A DNA stretch of 64,000 nucleotides from a virus (IMGVR_UViG_3300025875_000002:1-64000); one strand, 5' to 3'; shown: positions 6,191-44,686, counted from the first letter of the stretch. Translations and numbers: made by a program. Notes: generated by a model not told the origin, from the letters alone.

Positions 6191-6417
6191 CAGACGATTG
6201 CAAGTGCGTGGAGCGGCACGTCCCACTGCCCACCCACTACAGGTCTTTACAAGTCGGCGGCGAGGTGGTAAGCTTGTGCCCTACAACGTACGAGAACATC
6301 AGGGACCTGTTGATGAGCTTTCAGGTTCATGATACAGTTCCGCCAGGCAAGATTACGAAGCATTACTCAAAGTTTGTTCGTGAGATTTGTTTGCGGTTGT
6401 GGAAAGAGTCTCAGTAG
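6187..6417 (+). CDS. hypothetical Cys-rich small protein
   Basis: ORF track; overlaps terL stop. Confidence 0.3.
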   Translation: MTDDCKCVERHVPLPTHYRSLQVGGEVVSLCPTTYENIRDLLMSFQVHDTVPPGKITKHYSKFVREICLRLWKESQ

Positions 6418-8704: not shown

Positions 8705-8778
8705 TGCAGGCGTAGCTTAGTGGCCTAAAGCTCCCCTCTCTAAAAGGGGGATCGTGAGTTCGACTCTCACCGCCCGCA
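8705..8778 (+). tRNA. tRNA with anticodon CUA (amber-reading suppressor-type); amino acid identity undetermined
   Basis: Clean cloverleaf: acceptor GCAGGCG, D GCTT/AAGC, anticodon stem CCCCT/AGGGG, loop CTCTAAA (U33, A37), T arm GTGAG-TTCGACT-CTCAC, short variable arm. Confidence 0.5.
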
Positions 8779-8779
8779 C

Positions 8780-10291: not shown

Positions 10292-10420
10292 TCCGTCTGA
10301 TTTGGGATCAGAAAAAACGGGGTTCGACTCCCCGGTTCCCGACGCTGGGTAGTCTAGGTTCGAATCCTAGCGCGTCGTAGAATCTAGGAGGTTGCAAACT
10401 TCTAGGGGAAGATAGATGGT
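10292..10420 (+). other. tRNA-like fragments (anticodon-arm + T-arm piece; acceptor/T-arm minihelix CGACGC...GCGTCG)
   Basis: GGGGTTCGACTCCCC and TAGGTTCGAATCCTA T-arm motifs without full cloverleaf directly after HNH stop. Confidence 0.3.
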
Positions 10421-10433
10421 CTAGAACATCTAT

Positions 10434-10613
10434 GAGGCATGTAGTTTAATGGCAGAACAGCCCGGGTCTACTTTGCGGAATCGCGCGGTTTCGTAAGATC
10501 CCTCTAAATGCACATGAGGCTAAATAAGGTGCAGCCTGGGGCAGTATACCCTCACCCTGATAAGGTGTTGAAAGGTTAGCTGGTACCACGTTGGTTCAAA
10601 TCCAACCTGCCTC
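10434..10613 (+). tRNA. tRNA-like gene with ~110-nt internal insertion (interrupted tRNA or pseudo-tRNA)
   Basis: Canonical 5 prime half GAGGCAT-GTAGTTTAATGGCAGAACA and canonical 3 prime GTTGG-TTCAAAT-CCAAC-CTGCCTC-A whose acceptor strands pair; second alternative 5 prime acceptor GGGGCAG at 10528 also pairs with same 3 prime strand. Confidence 0.35.
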
Positions 10614-10665
10614 ACGCAAATCCCTAGGGACTAATCGTAACAAACTCGACTAGTTAGGACGTGCA

Positions 10666-11109: not shown

Positions 11110-11205
11110 GCACGGTTGAAGAACGGTTCGAATCCGTCTCGTAGTGTAATGGTAGCACGCAGCCTTAAGGTAAGTGCAGGTTCGAATCCTGTCCGGTCCA
11201 CTTTG
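11110..11205 (+). other. degenerate tRNA-like element(s)
   Basis: Two T-arm motifs (ACGG-TTCGAAT-CCGT; GCAGG-TTCGAAT-CCTGT) and a D-arm-like GTAGTGTAATGGTAGCAC but no complete cloverleaf; loop CTTAAGG would give anticodon UAA if real. Confidence 0.25.
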
Positions 11206-11237: not shown

Positions 11238-11310
11238 GGGAGAGCAGCACGCTGGTAGGTGCAAGTGGCTTATATCCTCTCGACAGTGGGTTCGATTCCC
11301 ACCTCTCCTA
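11238..11310 (+). tRNA. tRNA-Ile(UAU)-like
   Basis: Acceptor GGGAGAG/CTCTCCT, D GCAC/GTGC, anticodon loop CTTATAT, T arm GTGGG-TTCGATT-CCCAC; preceded by an orphan 5 prime tRNA-half-like segment (GGGCCGGTAGTCTAATTGGTAGGAC). Confidence 0.45.
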
Positions 11311-11311
11311 C

Positions 11312-11708: not shown

Positions 11709-11797
11709 TGGAAGTACAAGCCGAATGCTGGCCGACGGCATCGCACTTGAAATGCGACGAGGATAAAACCCTTGTGGGTTCGAACCCCACTGCTTCC
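11709..11797 (+). tRNA. tRNA-Ser(UGA), class II long variable arm
   Basis: Acceptor GGAAGTA/TGCTTCC, anticodon stem TCGCA/TGCGA loop CTTGAAA, long variable arm, T arm GTGGG-TTCGAAC-CCCAC. Confidence 0.6.
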
Positions 11798-15423: not shown

Positions 15424-15504
15424 GGGTCTAACGCCAAACGGTCAGGCATTGGATTGTGACTCCATGAGTATATCCCACAGAGGGTTCGACTCCCTCTAGA
15501 CCCT
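15424..15504 (+). tRNA. tRNA-like, 81 nt, possible anticodon GUG (His?) with extended variable region
   Basis: Perfect acceptor GGGTCTA/TAGACCC, T arm GAGGG-TTCGACT-CCCTC; internal arms noncanonical. Confidence 0.35.
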
Positions 15505-27159: not shown

Positions 27160-27900
27160 AGTAAATGAGGTATGGCTCAATAAGCTATGGTGACATAGTG
27201 AAAGGCAGACTGGTTGTCTGTCGCCCAGCAATGGGTAGTCCATACAAAGCATTGGTCGTTGAGCAATCGGACACCCCGGTTGCAGCGATGTGAGCGTCCC
27301 AGGCGAATGGTCGAATGACTGTAGCCACCCGGCAGGGTAAGACGGGGTTCTACGTAAGCATCACGTTCGATAATGCGAGGAAAGATAGTCCGAGACCGCA
27401 ATCAAGGGCGCTTTCCATGAAGGTTAAGTAGCTGGACCGGCAGGTTCGTGAAAGACTAGAGATTTGAGTAGCCCCGCAAGGCGAAAGATATTGAGGCGTG
27501 TAGTATTCTTAGGCTCAAAAGGTCTCGGAACTACGCGGAGAAGCACGTCTCTCACCACATACCCACCCCGGTTAGGGGACTGTATATTGGAATACAAATT
27601 CAAATAAGCAAAAGACTTCTCCTGTCGTAAAGCAAAAGTGCCTTAATGGCTGACCTTCGGGAATCAGCCCACCTAAAAGCTCGCAAGGCCAAGGGTGTTC
27701 GTGTACAAGTAGTGCAGTGAAGGGGTTTAGCGGCCCTTACACGAATCGAAAGTAGCGGAGTAGCTCTACGTCATGAAGAGTGATCAGCTATACTGATCAG
27801 GCACGGCAGGTCCGGTAGGGATACCGGGGAAAGGTTGGGAAACAATAATCCAACTAAAGCCTGTCACGGGAGGGTGAATTCTAAGCCCTCCCAAATTTTA
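27160..27900 (+). ncRNA. large ORF-free, highly structured RNA candidate (~740 nt); identity unresolved (GOLLD/ROOL-like phage RNA or degenerate ribozyme-like element)
   Basis: No credible ORF on either strand; many hairpins incl. GNRA/UUCG-type loops; long-range complementarity AGTCCGAGACC (27387-97) with GGTCTCGGAACT (27521-32); flanked by tRNAs. Confidence 0.4.
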
Positions 27901-27975: not shown

Positions 27976-28083
27976 CTAGCGCGGATGGAGAAAAGGTGTC
28001 TCGCCAGCCTCATAAGCTGGAAATCAGGCTGGTCGGAGCAGCCCCGCGCTCCCACGTATTGGAACAACAGAAAGGCAATCCTA

Positions 28084-29282: not shown

Positions 29283-29591
29283 ATAACCTGAGGAGGTGAC
29301 TAAATTCGTATGGCATCATCACCATCCGGCTTGAAGGGCAACCCAGCCTCCAAGCGTATGAGCAACGCCCACCGCAAGGCATACCGCGCGGCACTATGGG
29401 CAAAGCAGAAGAAGCGTGCAGCAGCGCGTCAGGCAAAGCAGGACGCAGCACACGCCGCAAAGCAGAGGTGAGTATGGCGGGGTTGACAAGTTCAACCCCG
29501 CCTGCTACACTTAACATGGCAGATTGGCCGAGGGAAGGTACGCGCCTGCAAAGCGTTGTCACACGGGTTCGTAACCCGTATCTGCCTCCAC

Positions 29592-29657
29592 GCTCTCAGT
29601 AAGGAACAGAACGATCTTCCGAAGTTCGTGATCAGGGTTCGATTCCCTGTGAGAGCA
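29592..29657 (+). other. 66-nt tRNA-like element lacking a D arm
   Basis: Perfect acceptor GCTCTCA/TGAGAGC, T arm CAGGG-TTCGATT-CCCTG, single central hairpin. Confidence 0.3.
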
Positions 29658-29765
29658 CGGGGCCGGTTGTGCGGCCAACTAATATGACTCTGATTCTATT
29701 GGGATTGGGTTGGAGTCGAATAGGTGAGATATAGTAGCCCAATTGAGGCTCACCTACACAACCTA

Positions 29766-33422: not shown

Positions 33423-33658
33423 TCGTAGTTCAGTGGGGGTTCGACTCCTCATGCGGCCGCAATTCTCCGGGAAGGCTGAACTAGCAATGGGCGTTAAGTG
33501 TCAAGGGTTGCACGTCGGTGTTGCATACCGAAAGATAGGGTTCAACTCCCTCACTGTCCACACCTAGAGGAAACCAGGGACGCTTGGTGAAATCGAAAGT
33601 CAGCCGGATGGAGGCTGAGAGCATAAGGAGACCTAATGGTTGGTCCCACCATCGCAAT

Positions 33659-37075: not shown

Positions 37076-37639
37076 ATGCCTTGCAATAGCGACTACATGA
37101 TGCCCAGCCAGCAGGAGATTAAGCGTCTTGGCGAGAAGTCTGAGGCTCTAAAGGATATCGCTGATCAGATGGTGTACTCTGCCGATGTGATCCGTGAGAT
37201 TGTCCTTAAGACCTTCGGTCATTTCAGCAACCTTGATGTGGCTACTGCCCTAGAGCTTAGCCGTCGGGTTACTTCCTGGGAGGCTCTGTCTGCCAAGGGT
37301 GATAAGCTCGTTGACGATATCAAGAATGAGTACGCCTACGGCAACGATAGTGGTGGAAAGAAGCGCGGTAACAAGGTTTTGGCCGGTTACGAGGCTTCCA
37401 AGCAGAGCTTTAAGGTTGCAGTCGATGGTGGCTCTAACCTTATGAACGACGTTAAGCTTTCTCCTGAGACGTATGAGAAGATTGAGAACGATCAGATTCA
37501 TCACCGCATGGAGGACGTTAAGCGTCTCATCCCTATCTTTTCCGAGCGGGGCGATTTCAAGACCGTTGTCAAGCTTTCGCAGGTTGACTTTACTCAGGAG
37601 CTAGAGCCGCAGCTTGGTTTCAGCCCTGACGACTTCTAA
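37076..37639 (+). CDS. hypothetical protein
   Basis: ORF track. Confidence 0.35.
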   Translation: MPCNSDYMMPSQQEIKRLGEKSEALKDIADQMVYSADVIREIVLKTFGHFSNLDVATALELSRRVTSWEALSAKGDKLVDDIKNEYAYGNDSGGKKRGNKVLAGYEASKQSFKVAVDGGSNLMNDVKLSPETYEKIENDQIHHRMEDVKRLIPIFSERGDFKTVVKLSQVDFTQELEPQLGFSPDDF

Positions 37640-37647
37640 GGAGTAGT

Positions 37648-38025
37648 ATGATCAATGGTTGGATTGAAGTAACTGAACAAAAGCTTAACGCGCATAGCAC
37701 TGGTTGGCAGAACCGTTGGGTTAATGTTCCTACCGGTGAGCAGGAGTGTCCTGATTGTAAGTTTCGCACAAGCGTAAACGATCTTTTCGGTTCTCACAAC
37801 TGCCCGGAAATGAGAGACTGTCATGGTAACATTATGGCGGTTGATGACATTGCCTATGCTTATTCCAGTAGCAAGATTCGTAAGGTTAAGATTGTAAAGT
37901 ACAAGAAGGAAACCGATAACATCGGTGTGGAAGAACTAGATAATCCTGGCGATCTTCGTGAGGACGGCCAGCCGCGCCGGTATACAGTTACCGATCATGG
38001 TAAGATTTTGAGGATAGATGAATAA
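37648..38025 (+). CDS. hypothetical Cys-containing protein
   Basis: ORF track; CPDCKF, CPEMRDCHG. Confidence 0.35.
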   Translation: MINGWIEVTEQKLNAHSTGWQNRWVNVPTGEQECPDCKFRTSVNDLFGSHNCPEMRDCHGNIMAVDDIAYAYSSSKIRKVKIVKYKKETDNIGVEELDNPGDLREDGQPRRYTVTDHGKILRIDE

Positions 38026-38180
38026 GCAGACAATTACTGACATATTAAAGAAGCATCTTCAAAATGAAGAGTTTATAAATCTTTGGTGGGACTTAAAACT
38101 ACCGGGCCTGGGAATGGCAAGCCCCAATGAAGTATGGGAGCGAGACCCAGAAATTGTATTAGAATACGCACAGGGCTATG

Positions 38181-38209
38181 GAGATCATGCTTGACCAACC
38201 GGCCCGGTT
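38181..38209 (+). promoter_or_regulatory. sigma70-like promoter (TTGACC N17 TAGAAT)
   Basis: cTTGACCaaccggcccggttgtgcTAGAATat. Confidence 0.35.
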
Positions 38210-38347
38210 GTGCTAGAATATAAGTACCGGAGGGATGGGTGCCAATTCCCATTACCAATCAGGGTGACAGACTTGAACAAGTACGCTTAGCGAAAAGTTC
38301 TAACTTGAAGCCATGTTGGAATAGCTCGTAGTCGAGCACCGGACTCT

Positions 38348-38431
38348 GGAAGGTAACCGATTGGTCTAGGAGTCGCACTGCTAATGCGATACGGGTGTAT
38401 GCCCAGGTGAGTTCGATTCTCACGCTTTCCG
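38348..38431 (+). tRNA. tRNA-Ser(GCU), class II
   Basis: Acceptor GGAAGGT/GCTTTCC, anticodon stem TCGCA/TGCGA loop CTGCTAA, long variable arm, T arm GTGAG-TTCGATT-CTCAC. Confidence 0.6.
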
Positions 38432-38459
38432 CATAAGAAAAAGATGGTACAATAACAGC

Positions 38460-38870
38460 ATGATGACGATACGGCGAGTTAAATCTTTCTTAAACAACCG
38501 GCCACTCTGTGTAATTGGCATGCTGTCGGGATTGAAAGACATACTTGTGGGTACCGGATTCCTGTTCCAATTTAATCAAGTTACACGAACTCATCTATTT
38601 CAAAACTTTAACGAATTAATTCCTGGTTATAGCGGATGGATAGTGGGAATCTTTTTCATTCTTTCAGGGATTGTGGTAATCACAGGCGAATCAATTAATA
38701 AAATGAAACTGGCCCGGTGGGGATTGAGATACCAAGCCTACGCTTGGCTATTTTCCGGTATTATGTATACCTTAGACCAAGAATGGATATTAGCATTAAT
38801 TCTTGGTGGGTTCTTTAGTGTAGTTTCTGGATACACTGCTTATTATTACAAGTATAAGACCCGTAGTTGA
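38460..38870 (+). CDS. membrane protein (4 predicted TM segments)
   Basis: ORF track; hydrophobic segments. Confidence 0.4.
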   Translation: MMTIRRVKSFLNNRPLCVIGMLSGLKDILVGTGFLFQFNQVTRTHLFQNFNELIPGYSGWIVGIFFILSGIVVITGESINKMKLARWGLRYQAYAWLFSGIMYTLDQEWILALILGGFFSVVSGYTAYYYKYKTRS

Positions 38871-38940
38871 CACACCGGCTCGATTCTGCTAGACTTGTAC
38901 TACGAGAGAGGGAGGGGCTAAGGCTTTTCCCACTCTCCAA

Positions 38941-39021
38941 GCCTAAGTGGTGGAATGGCATACACAACCGACTCAAAATCGGTCGCGGCAACGCATGAGG
39001 GTTCGACTCCCTTCTTAGGTA
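38941..39021 (+). tRNA. tRNA-Leu(CAA), class II
   Basis: Acceptor GCCTAAG/CTTAGGT, anticodon stem ACCGA/TCGGT loop CTCAAAA, long variable arm, T arm GAGGG-TTCGACT-CCCTT. Confidence 0.55.
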
Positions 39022-39087
39022 CGCGGTGCAGTTTTCTAGAGTGTGCTGTACTAGCAACCATTGGTCCGTACAACCAATGGACAATGA

Positions 39088-39195
39088 ACAAATGTGCCGG
39101 AGTGGTTTAACGGAAGCCCCGTGGAGGGGCTGTCTATGTATCGGCCCAAGGCGGGTGCGTTGCATAGACCGCTGGTTCGAATCCAGTCATTTGTT
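39088..39195 (+). tRNA. atypical 108-nt tRNA-like gene, anticodon GGA (Ser?) with ~40-nt extra arm
   Basis: Perfect acceptor ACAAATG/CATTTGT, anticodon stem GCCCC/GGGGC loop GTGGAGG, 7-bp extra-arm stem GTCTATG/CATAGAC, T arm GCTGG-TTCGAAT-CCAGT. Confidence 0.35.
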
Positions 39196-39199
39196 CGAT

Positions 39200-39271
39200 G
39201 CGTGCGTAGGCCATCGGCGAGCCGCCAGATTTAGGTTCTGGTGTATGTGGGTTCGACTCCCATCGCACGTA
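39200..39271 (+). tRNA. tRNA with anticodon UAG but class I (short variable arm) architecture
   Basis: Acceptor GCGTGCG/CGCACGT, D GGCC/AGCC, anticodon stem CCAGA/TCTGG loop TTTAGGT, variable TGTAT, T arm GTGGG-TTCGACT-CCCAT. Confidence 0.5.
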
Positions 39272-39310
39272 CGCTTGACTTTGGTAGGCTAGCTTGCTAT
39301 AATCATAGCA

Positions 39311-39789
39311 TGACTTCCAGAGTAGGATATAAGCATAAGTATACAGAAGAAATGTTGCGTGATGCTGTTACCAATTCATTTTCTTTAGCTAATGTGTTGA
39401 GAATATTAAACATTCCACAAGCGGGTGGAAATCAAACTCACATTAGAAAGAGAATTAATTTCTTCGGTATCGACACTACGCATTTTACAGGCGCAGTTCA
39501 CAACAAAGGAAAGCCTGCTAGAAATAGACTTAGCTTAGAAGAAATATTAATTGTCCTACCAGCAGGATCGGCTAGACCAAAGCGCAAACAGCTAAAGCGA
39601 GCAATGTTAGAGTCAGGCTTGCTATACCAGTGCCGATGTGGTAACCTTGGTAAGTGGCAGGGCAAGGAGCTTTGCTTAGAAATTGATCACATAAATGGTG
39701 ACTGGCTGGACAATAGATTAGAAAATCTTAGGTTTCTCTGCCCTAACTGTCATAGTCAAGAGCCGACTAGTCACAGACAAAAGAAATAA
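39311..39789 (+). CDS. HNH endonuclease
   Basis: LEIDHINGDWLDNRLENLRFLCPNCHSQE; start ATG after tRNA. Confidence 0.7.
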
Positions 39790-39794
39790 ATAAT

Positions 39795-39877
39795 GCCCCC
39801 TTGGTGAAATCAGGTAAACACGGCGGACTTAAAATCTGCTGCCCACGGGCTTGTCGGTTCAAATCCGACAGGGGGTA
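39795..39877 (+). tRNA. tRNA-Leu(UAA), class II (bldA-like)
   Basis: Acceptor GCCCCCT/AGGGGGT, anticodon stem GCGGA/TCTGC loop CTTAAAA, long variable arm with GCCC/GGGC stem, T arm GTCGG-TTCAAAT-CCGAC. Confidence 0.6.
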
Positions 39878-39924
39878 CGTCAAGCTAGGAACGCAACGGT
39901 GGCGACCGTCCTTCTTGGCATCAC

Positions 39925-39997
39925 GCCTACATAGTCCAACGGTAGAGACAAACGGCTTAGACCCGTTGTGTTGGGGGTTCGAATCCCTCTGTAGGCA
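39925..39997 (+). tRNA. second class-I-architecture tRNA with anticodon UAG
   Basis: Perfect acceptor GCCTACA/TGTAGGC, D GTCC/AGAC-type, anticodon stem AACGG/CCGTT loop CTTAGAC, variable GTGTT, T arm GGGGG-TTCGAAT-CCCTC. Confidence 0.5.
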
Positions 39998-40161
39998 CCG
40001 AGCGGTAGTGTAAGTGCGTATAAAGCGTTCGATTTCAGGCACCCTGGGGACGGCAATCCTAACAGAGTTTGCGGGTCGTTCGAAAAACGTAGCCTCTTTG
40101 CCGAGGGGAAGCACACTGGACGTTAATCCAGTAGTGAGGTATCAAATCCTCCCAATCGACT

Positions 40162-40233
40162 CGGATGTGTAATTCATTGGTAGAATGCTTCGTTGACACC
40201 GAAGTCGTAGGAGGTTCAATTCCTCTCACATCC
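40162..40233 (+). tRNA. tRNA-Val(GAC)
   Basis: Perfect acceptor GGATGTG/CACATCC, D ATTC/GAAT, anticodon stem CTTCG/CGAAG loop TTGACAC, T arm GGAGG-TTCAATT-CCTCT. Confidence 0.65.
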
Positions 40234-40288
40234 ACCCGGTCCCTATATACTACCATGATATAGGGACTTTTTCTTTGAAGGGAAGTCT

Positions 40289-40981
40289 ATGAGAATACTT
40301 GACCTCTATTGCGTAGCTGGTGGGGCCGGTAAAGGCTACCATGACGCCGGTTTTGAAGTAGTAGGCATTGACATTAAGCCACAACTCAACTACCCTTTCG
40401 CTTTCAGCCGGATGGTAGCACTAGAAGCCCTACAAATCCTTATTGACGGTGGTTCTATTATTACGACTAAGGGTCTATTTAAGTTAGAAGATTTTGATTT
40501 CATTCACGCCTCCCCACCGTGCCAGTCAAGTTCAGCCTTGACAAAGGGCACCAACTACGGTAAGTTTACTTATCCAGACCTTATCGAACCAACCCGTGAC
40601 CTACTAAAGGAGACCGGCCTTCCGTACGTTATTGAAAACGTTGCCGGTGCAGCAATCGACAAGGACATTATGCTCTGTGGAGAAATGTTCGGACTTGCCG
40701 TTATTCGTCATCGCTTCTTTGAATTGGGTGATTGGAAAGCTTATCAACTCCCACATAGGAAGCACCGAGGCCGGGTTGCCGGTATGAGGCATGGAGTTTG
40801 GTATGAAGGCCCATACTTTGCTGTATACGGAGACGGCGGTGGCAAGGGCACGGTTGCCCAATGGCAAGATGCTATGGATATACACTGGACTAACGTTCGT
40901 AAAGAGATTGCAGAGGCGATTCCGCCGCTTTATTCGAAGTACATAGGCGAGCAGCTTATGGTCTGTTTGCAAAGGGGATAG
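40289..40981 (+). CDS. DNA (cytosine-5)-methyltransferase, unusually short (230 aa)
   Basis: Motif I LDLYCVAGGAGKGY, motif IV SPPCQ, motif VI VIENV; no obvious TRD/motif IX-X region. Confidence 0.65.
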   Translation: MRILDLYCVAGGAGKGYHDAGFEVVGIDIKPQLNYPFAFSRMVALEALQILIDGGSIITTKGLFKLEDFDFIHASPPCQSSSALTKGTNYGKFTYPDLIEPTRDLLKETGLPYVIENVAGAAIDKDIMLCGEMFGLAVIRHRFFELGDWKAYQLPHRKHRGRVAGMRHGVWYEGPYFAVYGDGGGKGTVAQWQDAMDIHWTNVRKEIAEAIPPLYSKYIGEQLMVCLQRG

Positions 40982-41174
40982 TAATGGGTGTTTGGGCAGA
41001 AAATTATACTCCAAGTCATGAAGATGTTATCACAATGATCTTGCGTGACAACGTGTGGACACCAGCACAGGACTTGCCATGTGGATGCAACCCTGCTAAG
41101 CTTTGTGCAGAGCACGCAAGAATCCGGGCCGTGGAGCACTACCATCCTGAGACTATTCCAGCCCGGTTCAGGTC

Positions 41175-41204
41175 TTGACAAACTGTCGTACCCCCGTGCT
41201 ACAC
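41175..41204 (+). promoter_or_regulatory. sigma70-like promoter (TTGACA N18 TACACT) upstream of rIIA-like gene
   Basis: cTTGACAaactgtcgtacccccgtgcTACACTaa. Confidence 0.4.
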
Positions 41205-41236
41205 TAAACCTAACAAAAACAACACTAGGAGGCTTC

Positions 41237-43198
41237 ATGGAAACCCCCGTTTCTAGCATTACTTCCCAGGGCGACCTGGGCGGTCAGAAGGTCAAGATGA
41301 GCTTTGACGAGAATTCTCTCGCTCACCTGATGAGTGTCCTCACCGACCTTTATTCTGACCCGCAGCTTGCGGTCATCCGTGAGTACAGCACCAACGCGCT
41401 TGACGCGCACATTGAGGCTGGTATCACAGACCCGATTGAGGTTTTCACTCCTTCGGCTTACTCTCCGTACTTCAAGATCGTTGACCACGGTGTCGGCCTT
41501 TCGGTGGACGACATTACGGACATGTACTCTAAGTACGGTGCCTCTTCTAAGCGTGGAACTAACGATCAGGTTGGTATGCTTGGCCTTGGTGCTAAGTCTG
41601 CTCTGACTTTGGTCCCGCAGTTTACTTTAGTTTCCGTCAAGAACGGTGTAAAGATCAGCGTTAGCATCAGCCGTAACTCTGATGGTGCTGGTCAGATGGA
41701 GATTATTGATACTGTTTCGACTACAGAGAGTAACGGTGTTACGATTCAGATTCCTGTTCCTCGTAACCACACCTTCACTCAGAAGTGTGAGGACTTCTTC
41801 CGCTTTTGGAAGAAGGGAACCGTCCTCGTTGACGGTAAGGAGCCTGCTTTCATTGAGGGCCGACTGGTTGGGACTGACTTCATTGTTAACCAGAAGCTTC
41901 GCCAGGACTACATCGTTATGGGTAACGTTCCCTATCCGGTGAAGGAATCGCTGTACGGTAACAGCTATAGCTCGCTGGGTGTTGTTGCTTTCGTCAAGAT
42001 CGGTGACGTTAACTTCACTCCTTCCCGTGAGCAGCTTCACTACACGACCAAGACGAAGGAGACCATTGCGCGTTTGCGTAAGGACTTCTCCGACCAGCTT
42101 CTTGCGTCGATCCAGAAGGACATTGACACCGCTCCGGACCACCACACCGCGTGGGCGCGCGCAACGGAGTGGAGAGATTCTTTCGGTAACCAATTCAAGG
42201 CTTTGAGCTACAAGAACTCTGTTATTCCTAGCCACATTAGCTTCACAAGCTACATGGCTAAGGACGCAGCAGGTAACGCTTTCACTAAGAATGTCAATGC
42301 TAAGAGCATCAGCATTTTCAGCAACAGCCGTTACAACTATTCATTTCCTAGCGGCGTGAACAACGCTGATGGACCGAAGCACATTTACATTACCGGTTTC
42401 GCTGAGTCTTTGAAGGCCAGCCCGGTTCAGCGTGAGAAGGTTGCCTCTTATCTAGAGAGTCAGGGCATCCCTACAGTCAAGAACATGGTTATCACTAACC
42501 ACGATAGATTCTTCACTACTGATGATGAGAAGTGGCTTAAGGGCTTCCATTTCGCTGATTGGAAGACTGACATTGCTCCGATTAAGATTACTCGGAACAA
42601 GTCTGGTAACAAGGTTATCCGCACTGATCCTTATGACCTTTATGATGGACAGTACGGTAGCAAGCAGGTTCCCAACCTTGACCTTGCCAAGCCAATCGTG
42701 TACTATTCTACTGCCGACCTTCGCTACCCCGTGTGGCTGCCGAAGATGGTTGATGATGACGCACAGATTGTCATTCTGAGCAAGAACCGTTGGGATAAGT
42801 TCAAGCGTGATTACCCGACTGCGATGGAGTACCGTAAGGCTATCATCGCAAAGCAGGAGAAGCTGATTAAGCAGATGACCCTTGCTGATCGTATTCTCTG
42901 GCACCACAGCGGGTACCGTCACATTGTTCGCAGGCTTGATTGGAAGAAGATTAACGATCCTGACCTGCATGAGTTTGTTAAAGTTTTGTCTACGCCTGAC
43001 CTTGAATTCTCTGATGCTGCGAAGGTTCTTAGGGACGAAATGTCACGTCGTGAGGCTCCTAGCCCTGACGTTTCCATTCCTGTCAACCCCCTTACTCGCT
43101 ATCCTCTTCTCGGCAACATGCGTGAAACAGATGTTGAACATATTTATTGGTACTTGAATTCTTATTTAAAGGAGCTTAAGATTGCCAACAAGCTGTAA
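41237..43198 (+). CDS. rIIA-like protein with N-terminal GHKL/HATPase-like fold
   Basis: N-box-like IREYSTNALDAH, G-rich GMLGLGAKSAL; RBS AGGAGG; ~650 aa. Confidence 0.5.
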   Translation: METPVSSITSQGDLGGQKVKMSFDENSLAHLMSVLTDLYSDPQLAVIREYSTNALDAHIEAGITDPIEVFTPSAYSPYFKIVDHGVGLSVDDITDMYSKYGASSKRGTNDQVGMLGLGAKSALTLVPQFTLVSVKNGVKISVSISRNSDGAGQMEIIDTVSTTESNGVTIQIPVPRNHTFTQKCEDFFRFWKKGTVLVDGKEPAFIEGRLVGTDFIVNQKLRQDYIVMGNVPYPVKESLYGNSYSSLGVVAFVKIGDVNFTPSREQLHYTTKTKETIARLRKDFSDQLLASIQKDIDTAPDHHTAWARATEWRDSFGNQFKALSYKNSVIPSHISFTSYMAKDAAGNAFTKNVNAKSISIFSNSRYNYSFPSGVNNADGPKHIYITGFAESLKASPVQREKVASYLESQGIPTVKNMVITNHDRFFTTDDEKWLKGFHFADWKTDIAPIKITRNKSGNKVIRTDPYDLYDGQYGSKQVPNLDLAKPIVYYSTADLRYPVWLPKMVDDDAQIVILSKNRWDKFKRDYPTAMEYRKAIIAKQEKLIKQMTLADRILWHHSGYRHIVRRLDWKKINDPDLHEFVKVLSTPDLEFSDAAKVLRDEMSRREAPSPDVSIPVNPLTRYPLLGNMRETDVEHIYWYLNSYLKELKIANKL

Positions 43199-43778
43199 AA
43201 TCGAAGGCTGCGATAGCAAGATTGAGGCAAGAGGTTGGTGTAGCAAGCATTACCAACGATGGAGAAGGCATGGTGATCCACTCTACACTGAATTTTGTGT
43301 TGATGAGCTAACTGTAAAAGAAATTCTGTCAAACTGCACGGCCATGACTAATGGATGCCTAGAATGGAATCGTGGCCGTGTGACAGGAGGGTACGGAACT
43401 TTCATATTTGAGGGAAAAATTCACGCCTCTCATCGGGCCGTGTTAGAGTTAAGTCTTAATCGGTCGTTAGCACCAAAAATGCTAGCTTGTCACAAGTGCG
43501 ACAATCCTCCATGCTGTAATCCAGATCATTTATTTGAGGGATCATCGCAGAAAAATATTGATGATATGTTTTCTAAAGGGTGCAACAAAGCGCTTTTCGG
43601 AGAAAGTCATGGTAACAGTAAATTGAACGAGGCAAGCGTATTGGAAATAAAGATGCTCTTGCAATCCGGTGAAAGTTGTGCTAGCATTGCTAGGAGACAC
43701 AATGTGAACCCTCGCACAATATTGGACATTAAGCATGGATTAACATGGAAGCACACAAATTTTGGAGGTTTTAAATGA
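43182..43778 (+). CDS. HNH endonuclease (HNH_3-type with N-terminal Zn ribbon and C-terminal HTH)
   Basis: CKIEGCDSKIEARGWCSKH; CHKCDNPPCCNPDHLFEGSSQKN; sits between rIIA-like and rIIB-like genes. Confidence 0.55.
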   Translation: MPTSCKIEGCDSKIEARGWCSKHYQRWRRHGDPLYTEFCVDELTVKEILSNCTAMTNGCLEWNRGRVTGGYGTFIFEGKIHASHRAVLELSLNRSLAPKMLACHKCDNPPCCNPDHLFEGSSQKNIDDMFSKGCNKALFGESHGNSKLNEASVLEIKMLLQSGESCASIARRHNVNPRTILDIKHGLTWKHTNFGGFK

Positions 43779-44686
43779 AGTATAATTTGGTACAGAACGA
43801 TGAACTTGGTAGTCTTACGGCATTTTTCGATGGTCAGATGTACGTTGCTGATAACACGCACGCCTCTTGGCCGCAGCTTGTGGCCCAGGTCACGGCTGCT
43901 GATGACAGCACGGACCTTACGGCGCTAGCGCGTCTGTTCGATCCTGCTGTTGCCGTTGCAGACTTCTTCACTAAGGTTTCCGAGCGTGTCTCAGTTGCCG
44001 GTGGACACGTTTTCTTCGACGGCGAAGAGGTTAATGACGGTCTTGCCGACCACATTATCCGCTTCATGAATGAGGGTAATGACGCCCTGCCACTGGTTAG
44101 GTTCATGGAGAACATCATGACCAACCCCAACGAGAACAGCCGTACTCAGTTGTTCGATTGGCTGAGCAAGCGTGACTTCACCATTACGCCCGAGGGAACC
44201 TTCCTTGCGTACAAGGGTGTTGCTGCACGCACCAGCGGAGACGATCTGGATAAGTACCCTTACCAGTCTATCTCTAGCGGTAAGGCTATCGTTGACGGCA
44301 AGGTCTACGACGGTGCCATTCCTAACGGTGTCGGTGCTGTTGTTGAAATGCCTCGCGGTGAGGTTGCGCACGACCCTGACGTGGCTTGCCACACTGGTCT
44401 GCACGCCGGTAACTACCGTTACGCTTCCAACTTCGGTCGGATTCTGTTGATCGTTGAGATTAACCCGCGTGACGTTGTTTCCGTTCCTCACGACAGCAAC
44501 AGTGAGAAGATTCGTTGCTGCCGTTACACCGTTAAGGACGTTCAGAACAAGGAGTTCACCACTTCTTACTATGGCGGCTACTCTGCGCCGGTAGTTGACG
44601 ACGAGGATGACCTTGACGATCTGGACGAGGACTACTCCTATGACGCTCCGTACTATGGTGATGACGAGGATGACGACGGATTCTGA
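43775..44686 (+). CDS. rIIB-like protein (tentative), acidic C-terminus
   Basis: Position after rIIA-like gene, size ~300 aa, RBS GGAGG; no motif-level proof. Confidence 0.35.
   Translation: MKYNLVQNDELGSLTAFFDGQMYVADNTHASWPQLVAQVTAADDSTDLTALARLFDPAVAVADFFTKVSERVSVAGGHVFFDGEEVNDGLADHIIRFMNEGNDALPLVRFMENIMTNPNENSRTQLFDWLSKRDFTITPEGTFLAYKGVAARTSGDDLDKYPYQSISSGKAIVDGKVYDGAIPNGVGAVVEMPRGEVAHDPDVACHTGLHAGNYRYASNFGRILLIVEINPRDVVSVPHDSNSEKIRCCRYTVKDVQNKEFTTSYYGGYSAPVVDDEDDLDDLDEDYSYDAPYYGDDEDDDGF

Follow-up and report, generated by a model that had tools for sequence, protein, structure and literature searches.

The window analysed here is a 64-kb stretch (64,000 nucleotides) of an uncultured 133-kb phage known from metagenome assembly (IMGVR_UViG_3300025875_000002:1-64000), and its 37 tRNA genes and single tmRNA gene all lie on the + strand (ARAGORN, whole window). 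Upstream of the leucine tRNA group lies a sigma-70-like promoter (TTGACA-17-TAGACT, 38867..38895, + strand) with 10 of 12 consensus matches, identified by consensus match only. It is followed by a type II tRNA-Leu(CAA) with a long variable arm (38941..39021, + strand), called by ARAGORN and scoring 53.3 bits against the Rfam tRNA model (RF00005, gathering score 29 bits), which has a G1·U72 pair, A73 and a 3-bp D stem. The next element (39088..39196, + strand) is a tRNA-like cloverleaf without an assigned identity that ARAGORN calls only when an intron is allowed and that has no Rfam match at E ≤ 1. It consists of a 7-bp acceptor stem, a 3-bp D stem, a hairpin with a 5-nt loop (GUGGA), a 38-nt extra arm and a canonical T arm, with a minimum free energy of -45.7 kcal/mol (z = -3.1). 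Several degenerate tRNA-like elements of this kind, this one included, are present in the window.

Three nucleotides further downstream begins the first of two type I tRNA-Leu(UAG) genes, here called tRNA 1 (39200..39271, + strand; ARAGORN; Rfam 51.4 bits, E 1.4e-9). A free-standing HNH endonuclease gene (39310..39789, + strand; Pfam HNH and HNH_3; PHROG 10822, E 8e-50) is inserted in the tRNA group after tRNA 1, and is preceded by a strong, near-consensus sigma-70-like promoter (TTGACT-17-TATAAT with a TG element, 39275..39303, + strand; 11 of 12 consensus matches) that ends 6 nt before the HNH ATG. The transcript from this promoter would appear leaderless and would also carry the three downstream tRNAs. 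The first of these, a type II tRNA-Leu(UAA) with a 12-nt variable arm, G1·U72 and A73 (39795..39877, + strand; ARAGORN; Rfam 54.5 bits), starts 5 nt past the HNH stop codon. It is followed by the second type I tRNA-Leu(UAG), tRNA 2 (39925..39997, + strand; ARAGORN; Rfam 60.0 bits, E 6e-12), and by the final tRNA of the group, a tRNA-Val(GAC) of ordinary class I type with a 4-bp D stem (40163..40234, + strand; ARAGORN; Rfam 62.8 bits). No further tRNA was found in the spacer between them (40000-40162), even with relaxed ARAGORN thresholds, nor was any credible gene found on the minus strand between 38300 and 40400. A terminator-like hairpin read from the sequence, TCCCTATAT-(9 nt)-ATATAGGGA followed by CTTTTTCTTT (40240..40276, + strand), stands at the end of the tRNA transcription unit; it is absent from the consensus-scan list because its loop exceeds 8 nt. 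A DNA methyltransferase gene lies 3' of the hairpin, followed by rIIA and rIIB.

The region is reproducible: positions 37289-43981 are 100% identical to a 133,313-bp ENA metagenome contig and parts of them are 100% identical in four other metagenome assemblies, and such identity across five independent assemblies rules out an assembly error. Sequence look-ups with the methylase and HNH genes returned identical copies only.

Architecture of the two UAG tRNAs

The initial annotation had placed two tRNAs with anticodon UAG at 39200-39271 and 39925-39997, and ARAGORN and the Rfam covariance model agree on these coordinates. The perfect 5-bp anticodon stems described for them are present (CCAGA/UCUGG in tRNA 1 and AACGG/CCGUU in tRNA 2), as are the 5-nt variable loops (UGUAU and GUGUU respectively), and the tRNA-Leu(UAA) at 39795-39877 between them is indeed of class II with a long variable arm. 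A cryptic extra arm was looked for in both UAG tRNAs and none was found, so that their reading as unusual leucine isoacceptors was not refuted on this point. Both Rfam matches span the full model and lie above the gathering score, all four stems are intact with G·U pairs at most, and CCA is not encoded. The two genes are 67% identical to each other. Both contain U8-A14, G18G19 with U55C56, U54-A58 and a T loop starting with TTCGA, and inspection of the identity elements showed A73 in both and an acceptor pair of G1·U72 in tRNA 1 and G1-C72 in tRNA 2. The 3:70 pair is G3-C70 in tRNA 1 and C3-G70 in tRNA 2, the alanine-type G3·U70 being present in neither. At positions 15 and 48, tRNA 2 has A15 and U48; in tRNA 1 both are U, and the same is seen in its relative, the tRNA-Leu(CAA) of phage Tonenili.

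The D arm of both UAG tRNAs has a 3-bp stem, with loops of 9 and 10 nt, an arrangement typical of tRNA-Leu that recurs in the type II tRNA-Leu(CAA) and tRNA-Leu(UAA) of the window; a 4-bp D stem prevails among the other class I tRNAs of the window. Additionally, G1·U72 is common to tRNA 1 and both type II leucine tRNAs of the window. The anticodon loop of tRNA 1 is UUUAGGU, with G37, and its 17-nt anticodon arm, CCAGATTTAGGTTCTGG, is that of Escherichia coli tRNA-Leu(UAG), leuW; that of tRNA 2 is CUUAGAC, with A37. When the tRNAs were typed by nearest neighbour with the anticodon masked, leucine enrichment was moderate only. A derivation of tRNA 2 from a tRNA-Val, considered because its loop ends in AGAC and that of tRNA-Val in ACAC, was rejected on account of the 3-bp D stem, the widespread UAG homologues and the low identity to the valine tRNAs of the window.

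A family of leucine tRNAs with a short variable loop

The best blastn matches of the UAG tRNAs among 50,697 phage records were genes of 73-78 nt annotated as tRNA-Leu. They occur in Mycobacterium cluster C phages (Tonenili and Bonray; anticodons CAA, GAG and CAG), in M. abscessus prophages (UAG and CAA) and, always with UAG, in the Streptomyces phages Wofford and Manuel, the Bacillus phage Deep Blue and the Microcystis phage Mwe-JY26. The 73-78 nt genes of cultured phages share the scaffold of the window tRNAs at 72-82% identity. The nearest relatives of tRNA 1 are an IMG/VR tRNA-Leu(UAG) (85%) and the Tonenili tRNA-Leu(CAA) (82%), and tRNA 2 matches an IMG/VR tRNA-Leu(UAG) at 92% identity over 61 nt. 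The relatives that share 85-92% identity with the window tRNAs, found on other viral contigs, retain UAG and differ in compensatory pairs.

Two pattern scans of IMG/VR returned 11 loci and at least 120 loci, of which 131 are listed, and 115 of the listed loci carry a type I tRNA-Leu(UAG), the sample being conditioned on carriage of such a gene. The 204 type I leucine tRNAs of these loci carry A73 more often than the other class I tRNAs of the same loci (90% against 50%), and the same holds for a 3-bp D stem (78% against 26%) and for A15 (97% against 49%); their D loop measures 10-11 nt, that of the other class I tRNAs mostly 7-9 nt. The signature of the type I leucine tRNAs in the listed loci thus matches that of type II tRNA-Leu and differs from that of the other class I tRNAs. 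The same scaffold was seen with UAG, CAA, UAA, GAG, CAG and AAG anticodons, all of them for leucine, a range compatible with a synthetase that ignores the anticodon.

An alignment of 70 homologues supports the structure: 93.6% of its stem cells are paired and 487 cells are changed on both sides, a covariation reached by none of 500 shuffles, the paired fraction in slid controls being 35-49%. Within this alignment A14, the GG of the D loop and U48 are invariant, the 13:22 position is unpaired in 68 of the 70 sequences and G1·U72 occurs in 40. A37 in place of G37 is found in about half of the type I tRNA-Leu(UAG) genes of the viral loci and in 16 of 63 tRNA-Pro(UGG) genes; the idea that A37 is peculiar to type I leucine tRNAs was rejected, since phage tRNA-Pro(UGG) genes and type II tRNA-Leu(UAG) genes often have it as well.

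Among the leucine tRNAs of the listed viral loci with an anticodon other than UAG, 89 are type I and 37 type II, whereas in the same loci 97 of 99 tRNA-Ser and 32 of 37 tRNA-Tyr are type II. SerRS needs the long arm, and bacterial LeuRS makes no essential contact with it. Since serine tRNAs keep the arm and leucine tRNAs often lose it, the pattern is the one expected if normal synthetases charge these tRNAs. When one genome per species (185,579 species) was scanned for the tRNA 1 arm at the spacing of a type I tRNA, three matches appeared, all in Actinomycetota and all lone genes; one of them lies on a 798-kb scaffold of Nocardioides hwasunensis, which indicates that a chromosomal type I tRNA-Leu(UAG) exists too.

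The initial annotation had stated that bacterial tRNA-Leu is normally class II, which is generally true, but exceptions are documented for Streptomyces coelicolor, for tRNA arrays of mycobacteria and for phages of Streptomyces and Mycobacterium. In S. coelicolor the chromosomal tRNA-Leu(CAA) belongs to type I, its variable loop being 5 nt long (Fan et al., 2019, NAR, PMC6614811). It was shown that the single LeuRS of this species (ScoLeuRS) leucylates this tRNA with a kcat/Km of 6.25, compared to 14.2 for the type II UAA tRNA, that five nucleotides is the loop length it requires, the shortest with relatively high aminoacylation, and that U8-A14 matters for charging by this enzyme and A73 does not (PMC6614811). 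As in the window, a 5-nt-loop tRNA-Leu with U8-A14 is found there beside type II leucine tRNAs, UAA included; the S. coelicolor tRNA is, however, a chromosomal CAA tRNA whose charging was assayed, whereas the window tRNAs are phage-borne, carry UAG and are known from sequence. A mycobacterial tRNA cluster contains a short-variable-loop tRNA-Leu(TAG), an HNH endonuclease gene and a tRNA-Ile(TAT) (Behra et al., 2019, PMC6582537). All three are present in the window, the likeness being one of description, although that cluster resides in Mycobacterium genomes and the present one in a phage. Animal mitochondria also have an armless type I tRNA-Leu, and their LeuRS can dispense with the arm when charging it (PMC6614811), but these tRNAs belong to a different lineage and have a reduced structure, and human mitochondrial tRNA-Leu(UUR) is not charged by ScoLeuRS (PMC6614811). 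The UAG tRNAs of the window are therefore new sequences of a kind already on record for Streptomyces and for mycobacterial arrays, and annotated in many phages.

A further comparison is with the Streptomyces phage Wofford, which shares with the window a terminase, many tRNAs, a tmRNA, leucine, valine and serine tRNAs and rIIA/rIIB in syntenic order. Wofford carries two tandem 76-nt tRNA-Leu(tag) genes, a 74-nt tRNA-Leu(taa), a 78-nt tRNA-Leu(caa), a tRNA-Ile(tat) and several HNH genes. Both phages have the same pair of anticodon loops, CUUAGAC and UUUAGG, the latter completed by C in Wofford and by U in the window. tRNA 2 is closest to Wofford copy A, with which it shares the CUUAGAC loop (73% identity), and tRNA 1 to copy B, with the UUUAGG loop (71%); because each window gene is closest to a different Wofford copy, the two represent old sublineages rather than recent duplicates or anticodon mutants. 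The arrangements differ in that the CAA and UAA leucine tRNAs are type II in the window and type I in Wofford, and in that the HNH gene and tRNA-Leu(UAA) separate the two UAG genes, which are in tandem in Wofford. Short-armed leucine tRNAs are ordinary for this phage group.

Wofford is nevertheless only a distant relative of the window phage. The nearest cultured relatives, as judged from an rIIA identity of 38%, are the Streptomyces cluster BE phages (Stanwilliamsviridae); a megablast of positions 38000-42000 against the 50,697 phage records gave no match, and a protein search of viral contigs with rIIA returned no relative. The phage encodes a protein with Rpf-type transglycosylase and M23 peptidase domains, the former being a domain associated with Actinobacteria, and this protein points to an actinobacterial host. 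The carriage of type I tRNA-Leu is a second hint, in that it suggests a host LeuRS that accepts armless tRNA-Leu; such tolerance is demonstrated for the Streptomyces enzyme, while the LeuRS of E. coli cannot charge the S. coelicolor type I tRNA-Leu (PMC6614811), and this supports an actinobacterial host for the 133-kb phage.

Probable leucine identity and codon demand

The meaning of CUA in this phage was read by aligning the products of window ORFs with homologous proteins encoded in the compared loci, mainly those of Wofford and Peebs, and tallying the residue opposite each codon. CUA stands opposite leucine in 45% of 126 positions, followed by phenylalanine (9%) and isoleucine (8%), and the other leucine codons stand opposite leucine in 40-50% of positions (UUA in 48% of 95). 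There is no sign of CUA reassignment in these alignments, its profile being the same as that of CUU, CUC, CUG, UUA and UUG. Together with the leucine-type body and the widespread UAG family, this supports the reading of the two genes as unusual leucine isoacceptors.

Apart from LeuRS, SerRS and AlaRS, the synthetases read the anticodon according to established identity rules. Given A73, the missing long arm and the missing G3·U70, leucine is the identity that remains. Both UAG tRNAs are thus very probably type I tRNA-Leu that have lost the long variable arm, and they would be charged by LeuRS and serve the codon supply of the phage. Features of both tRNAs count against this assignment. The leucine identity set described for E. 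coli and A. aeolicus comprises A73, U8-A14, G18G19 with U55C56, U54-A58 and A15-U48 (PMC6614811), and tRNA 1 has U15, whereas E. coli LeuRS makes use of an A15-U48 pair; tRNA 2 in turn has A37 in place of the G37 (m1G37) that is usual in readers of CUN codons. Additionally, since the E. coli enzyme does not charge the type I tRNA-Leu of Streptomyces, charging would depend on which host is infected (PMC6614811).

Leucine codon usage was counted over 15,547 codons of + strand ORFs. CUU is the commonest (23.9 per 1000; 30% of leucine codons), followed by UUG (15.6; 20%), CUA (14.3; 18%), CUG (9.8; 12%), UUA (7.9; 10%) and CUC (7.6; 10%). The two codons singled out in the initial annotation are therefore both frequent in phage genes, CUA being found in 91 of 121 ORFs, with 19 occurrences in the terminase gene, and UUA in 77 of 121; in the corresponding region of Wofford they reach 15.2 and 4.5 per 1000. 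Because CUA and UUA are common in phage genes, codon supply is the likely role of these tRNAs, and the leucine tRNA set of the window (CAA, UAA and two UAG), taken with the codon usage, covers the codons that a high-G+C host would decode worst. The window holds no GAG-anticodon tRNA for CUU, the commonest leucine codon, so that the matching is incomplete unless U34 also reads CUU.

In the proposed mechanism, the UAG tRNAs would be made from the phage tRNA gene region and, as CCA is not encoded, would receive it post-transcriptionally. They would then be charged by the host LeuRS, an enzyme that is blind to the anticodon and, in Streptomyces, tolerant of a 5-nt variable loop, and would decode the CUA codons of phage mRNAs as well as, through wobble, at least the CUG codons. 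Alongside the type II tRNA-Leu(UAA) and tRNA-Leu(CAA) they would form a set of decoders for A/U-rich leucine codons, which are in heavy use in this phage of 47.5% G+C (the value of the window) and for which a high-G+C actinobacterial host would be poorly equipped.

The tRNA-Leu(UAA) had been described as bldA-like, with the suggestion that a phage copy would decouple phage translation from the developmental control of the host. The description holds for the UAA anticodon on a type II tRNA-Leu and goes no further, for the nearest relatives of the gene are ordinary type II tRNA-Leu genes from phages of many hosts; the likeness to bldA, which is developmentally regulated in Streptomyces, is one of anticodon and type II shape. 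The S. coelicolor genome contains only 145 UUA codons (PMC6614811), and Streptomyces phages usually avoid UUA altogether (PMC10732093). A phage with UUA in most of its genes may reasonably be expected to need a UUA-decoding tRNA of its own when the host is Streptomyces-like, and the tRNA-Leu(taa) of Wofford provides the same arrangement in a cultured Streptomyces phage. A decoupling from bldA may be envisaged if the host is a Streptomyces. A genome-wide recoding of TAG through the CUA-anticodon tRNA at 8706 was also considered and rejected, since 19 of 116 ORFs terminate at TAG and little coding sequence is gained by readthrough.

Alternative explanations and significance

The short variable loop combined with a leucine anticodon is atypical for bacteria, and Streptomyces is known to hold mistranslating tRNA-Pro variants, so that the UAG tRNAs might be thought to carry another amino acid, with CUA recoded or deliberately mistranslated, as in the proposal of tRNAs of another identity decoding CUA. 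This is extremely improbable: CUA aligns with leucine at the rate of the other five leucine codons with no other residue enriched, the D arm and A73 are of the leucine type, and neither an AlaRS, for want of G3·U70, nor the anticodon-reading synthetases would accept a tRNA with UAG. It is likewise very unlikely, if slightly less so, that the genes are pseudogenes or other tRNAs whose anticodon recently turned into UAG, the third of the readings initially offered. Degenerate tRNA-like elements do occur in the window, one of them directly upstream (39088-39196), and an identity of 67% between the two genes is low, but their stems are intact and their Rfam scores high, more than 115 type I UAG homologues exist, and relatives at 85-92% identity keep UAG while differing by compensatory pairs. 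The match of the two genes to two sublineages, each represented also in Wofford, marks them as old and not as recent mutants.

A role mainly in counter-defence, in which phage leucine tRNAs make up for host tRNA-Leu lost to cleavage, tagging or depletion in infection, and in which the armless shape and the A37/C32 loops escape nucleases or toxins, is compatible with both leucine identity and codon supply. It would give a meaning to the very frequent loss of the arm (the 89 type I against 37 type II non-UAG leucine tRNAs of the listed viral loci), to the replacement of G37 by A37 in about half of the type I tRNA-Leu(UAG) and in 16 of 63 tRNA-Pro(UGG), and to the two loop types kept side by side in the window and in Wofford. 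Additionally, tRNA arrays have been proposed as anti-defence elements (PMC12803027), and tRNA-degrading defence has been discussed (PMC10865867). On the other hand, codon demand alone accounts for the presence of the UAG tRNAs, and there is no sign here of a host nuclease or toxin that targets tRNA-Leu, which makes counter-defence a doubtful candidate for the main function. A reading of similarly low probability concerns the division of labour between the two UAG genes, which would not be redundant: tRNA 1, with U32 and G37, would be a TrmD substrate and the canonical reader of CUA and CUG, and tRNA 2, with C32, A37 and C38, could perhaps decode every one of the four CUN codons, CUU included, and would not need m1G37, and the armless bodies and altered loops might escape enzymes that attack the type II tRNA-Leu of the host. 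The pairing of a G37 with an A37 gene is common to the window and Wofford.

With type I tRNA-Leu supplying phage codons as the preferred reading, the two genes carry little weight as a discovery, their kind being already documented in hosts, tRNA arrays and phages. The wider pattern could be written up from public data: phage tRNA-Leu is mostly type I (about 70% in the listed loci, which were conditioned on a type I tRNA-Leu(UAG)) and tRNA-Ser keeps its arm, a contrast that was not found stated in the literature searched. For practical purposes, automated annotation can safely call such genes tRNA-Leu.

Extra arms and base 37 across related loci

Arm-less tRNA-Tyr genes of 72–75 nt also occur alongside normal copies of 83–84 nt in these phages, as in Streptomyces phage Wofford (29937–30008), a syntenic distant relative, and in Peebs (6312–6383). 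Among the matches listed for the viral loci, 5/37 tRNA-Tyr genes were arm-less and 97 of 99 tRNA-Ser genes kept the arm. Outside viruses, a pattern scan over 185,579 species genomes returned matches in three Actinomycetota genomes and in no others; each holds a lone type I tRNA-Leu(UAG) whose anticodon arm is identical to that of the window tRNA at 39200–39271 (Nocardioides hwasunensis, L143:3603–3676; L142:5120–5195; L144:4292–4365).

TrmD methylates G37, and A37 was frequently found in its place in phage tRNAs that read CNN codons, both in the viral loci L010–L140 and in the window at 39925–39997. Again among the matches listed for the viral loci, A37 was present in 60/115 type I Leu(UAG), in all six type II Leu(UAG) and in 16 of the 63 Pro(UGG) genes.

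Two notable anticodons and further tRNA-like elements

Two other plus-strand tRNAs of the window are notable for their anticodons. The tRNA at 8706–8779 (58.5 bits with the tRNA model), labelled 'Pyl' by ARAGORN, has the anticodon CUA and would have the UAG stop codon as its predicted target. Genome-wide recoding of TAG was not apparent, either from ORF ends or from a reading of TAG as sense, because TAG terminates 19 of the 116 ORFs and taking it as sense adds little coding sequence. The other, called by ARAGORN at 11238–11311, is a tRNA-Ile(UAU), which is common to the window and the Wofford annotation. In bacteria AUA is normally decoded by a lysidine-modified CAU tRNA, and a tRNA-Ile with a UAU anticodon is unusual. 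Mycobacterial tRNA clusters also contain tRNA-Ile(UAU) (PMC6582537).

Thirteen T-loop-like sites were found in the window beyond the ARAGORN calls, one belonging to an element at 39088–39196 and the other 12 lying at 10357, 10593, 11125, 11179, 11777, 15483, 18731, 27954, 33438, 33539, 34404 and 34571. Five of the 13 reach the Rfam tRNA gathering score (15424–15504, 33489–33560, 11711–11797, 10538–10614 and 11135–11200), so that the tRNA-like genes of the phage are more numerous and odder than a standard scan shows. On the plus strand at 29518–29658, tRNA-Cys(GCA) and a 69-nt 'tRNA-Arg(CCG)' have one base in common (29590), and the latter is poorly paired and falls below the Rfam tRNA gathering score.

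The element at 39088–39196 (plus strand; fold z-score -3.1) is a tRNA-like cloverleaf separated by 3 nt from the downstream tRNA-Leu(UAG) at 39200–39271. Its acceptor stem is 7 bp long, its D stem has 3 bp and a loop of 11 nt, and its extra arm spans 38 nt; the T arm is canonical, and the place of the anticodon loop is taken by a 5-nt loop (GUGGA) on a 6-bp stem. It had no match in the Rfam search of the window, ARAGORN reported it solely as a Tyr tRNA with an intron, and it may be a class II tRNA that has decayed, or else a processing element. Another tRNA-like element, together with tRNA-Met (27978–28054), lies directly 3' of a GOLLD RNA on the plus strand at 27491–27888 (RF02032, 203.5 bits versus a gathering score of 150).

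A putative HNH gene promoter and recurrence of the phage

In the plus-strand stretch 39275–39310, a sigma-70-like consensus match (TTGACT-17-TATAAT) marks a putative promoter of the HNH gene. Because the ATG lies 6 nt past the end of the -10 hexamer, this arrangement suggests a leaderless mRNA, a common style in Actinobacteria.

The region 37289–43981 matches without a difference the ENA metagenome contig ERZ27293403 k141_2035252 (133,313 bp), and parts of the region recur unchanged in contigs from JGI 3300004213, 3300025825 and 3300004186 and from Logan SRR6241621; judged by these identities, the same uncultured phage genome is present in several samples.
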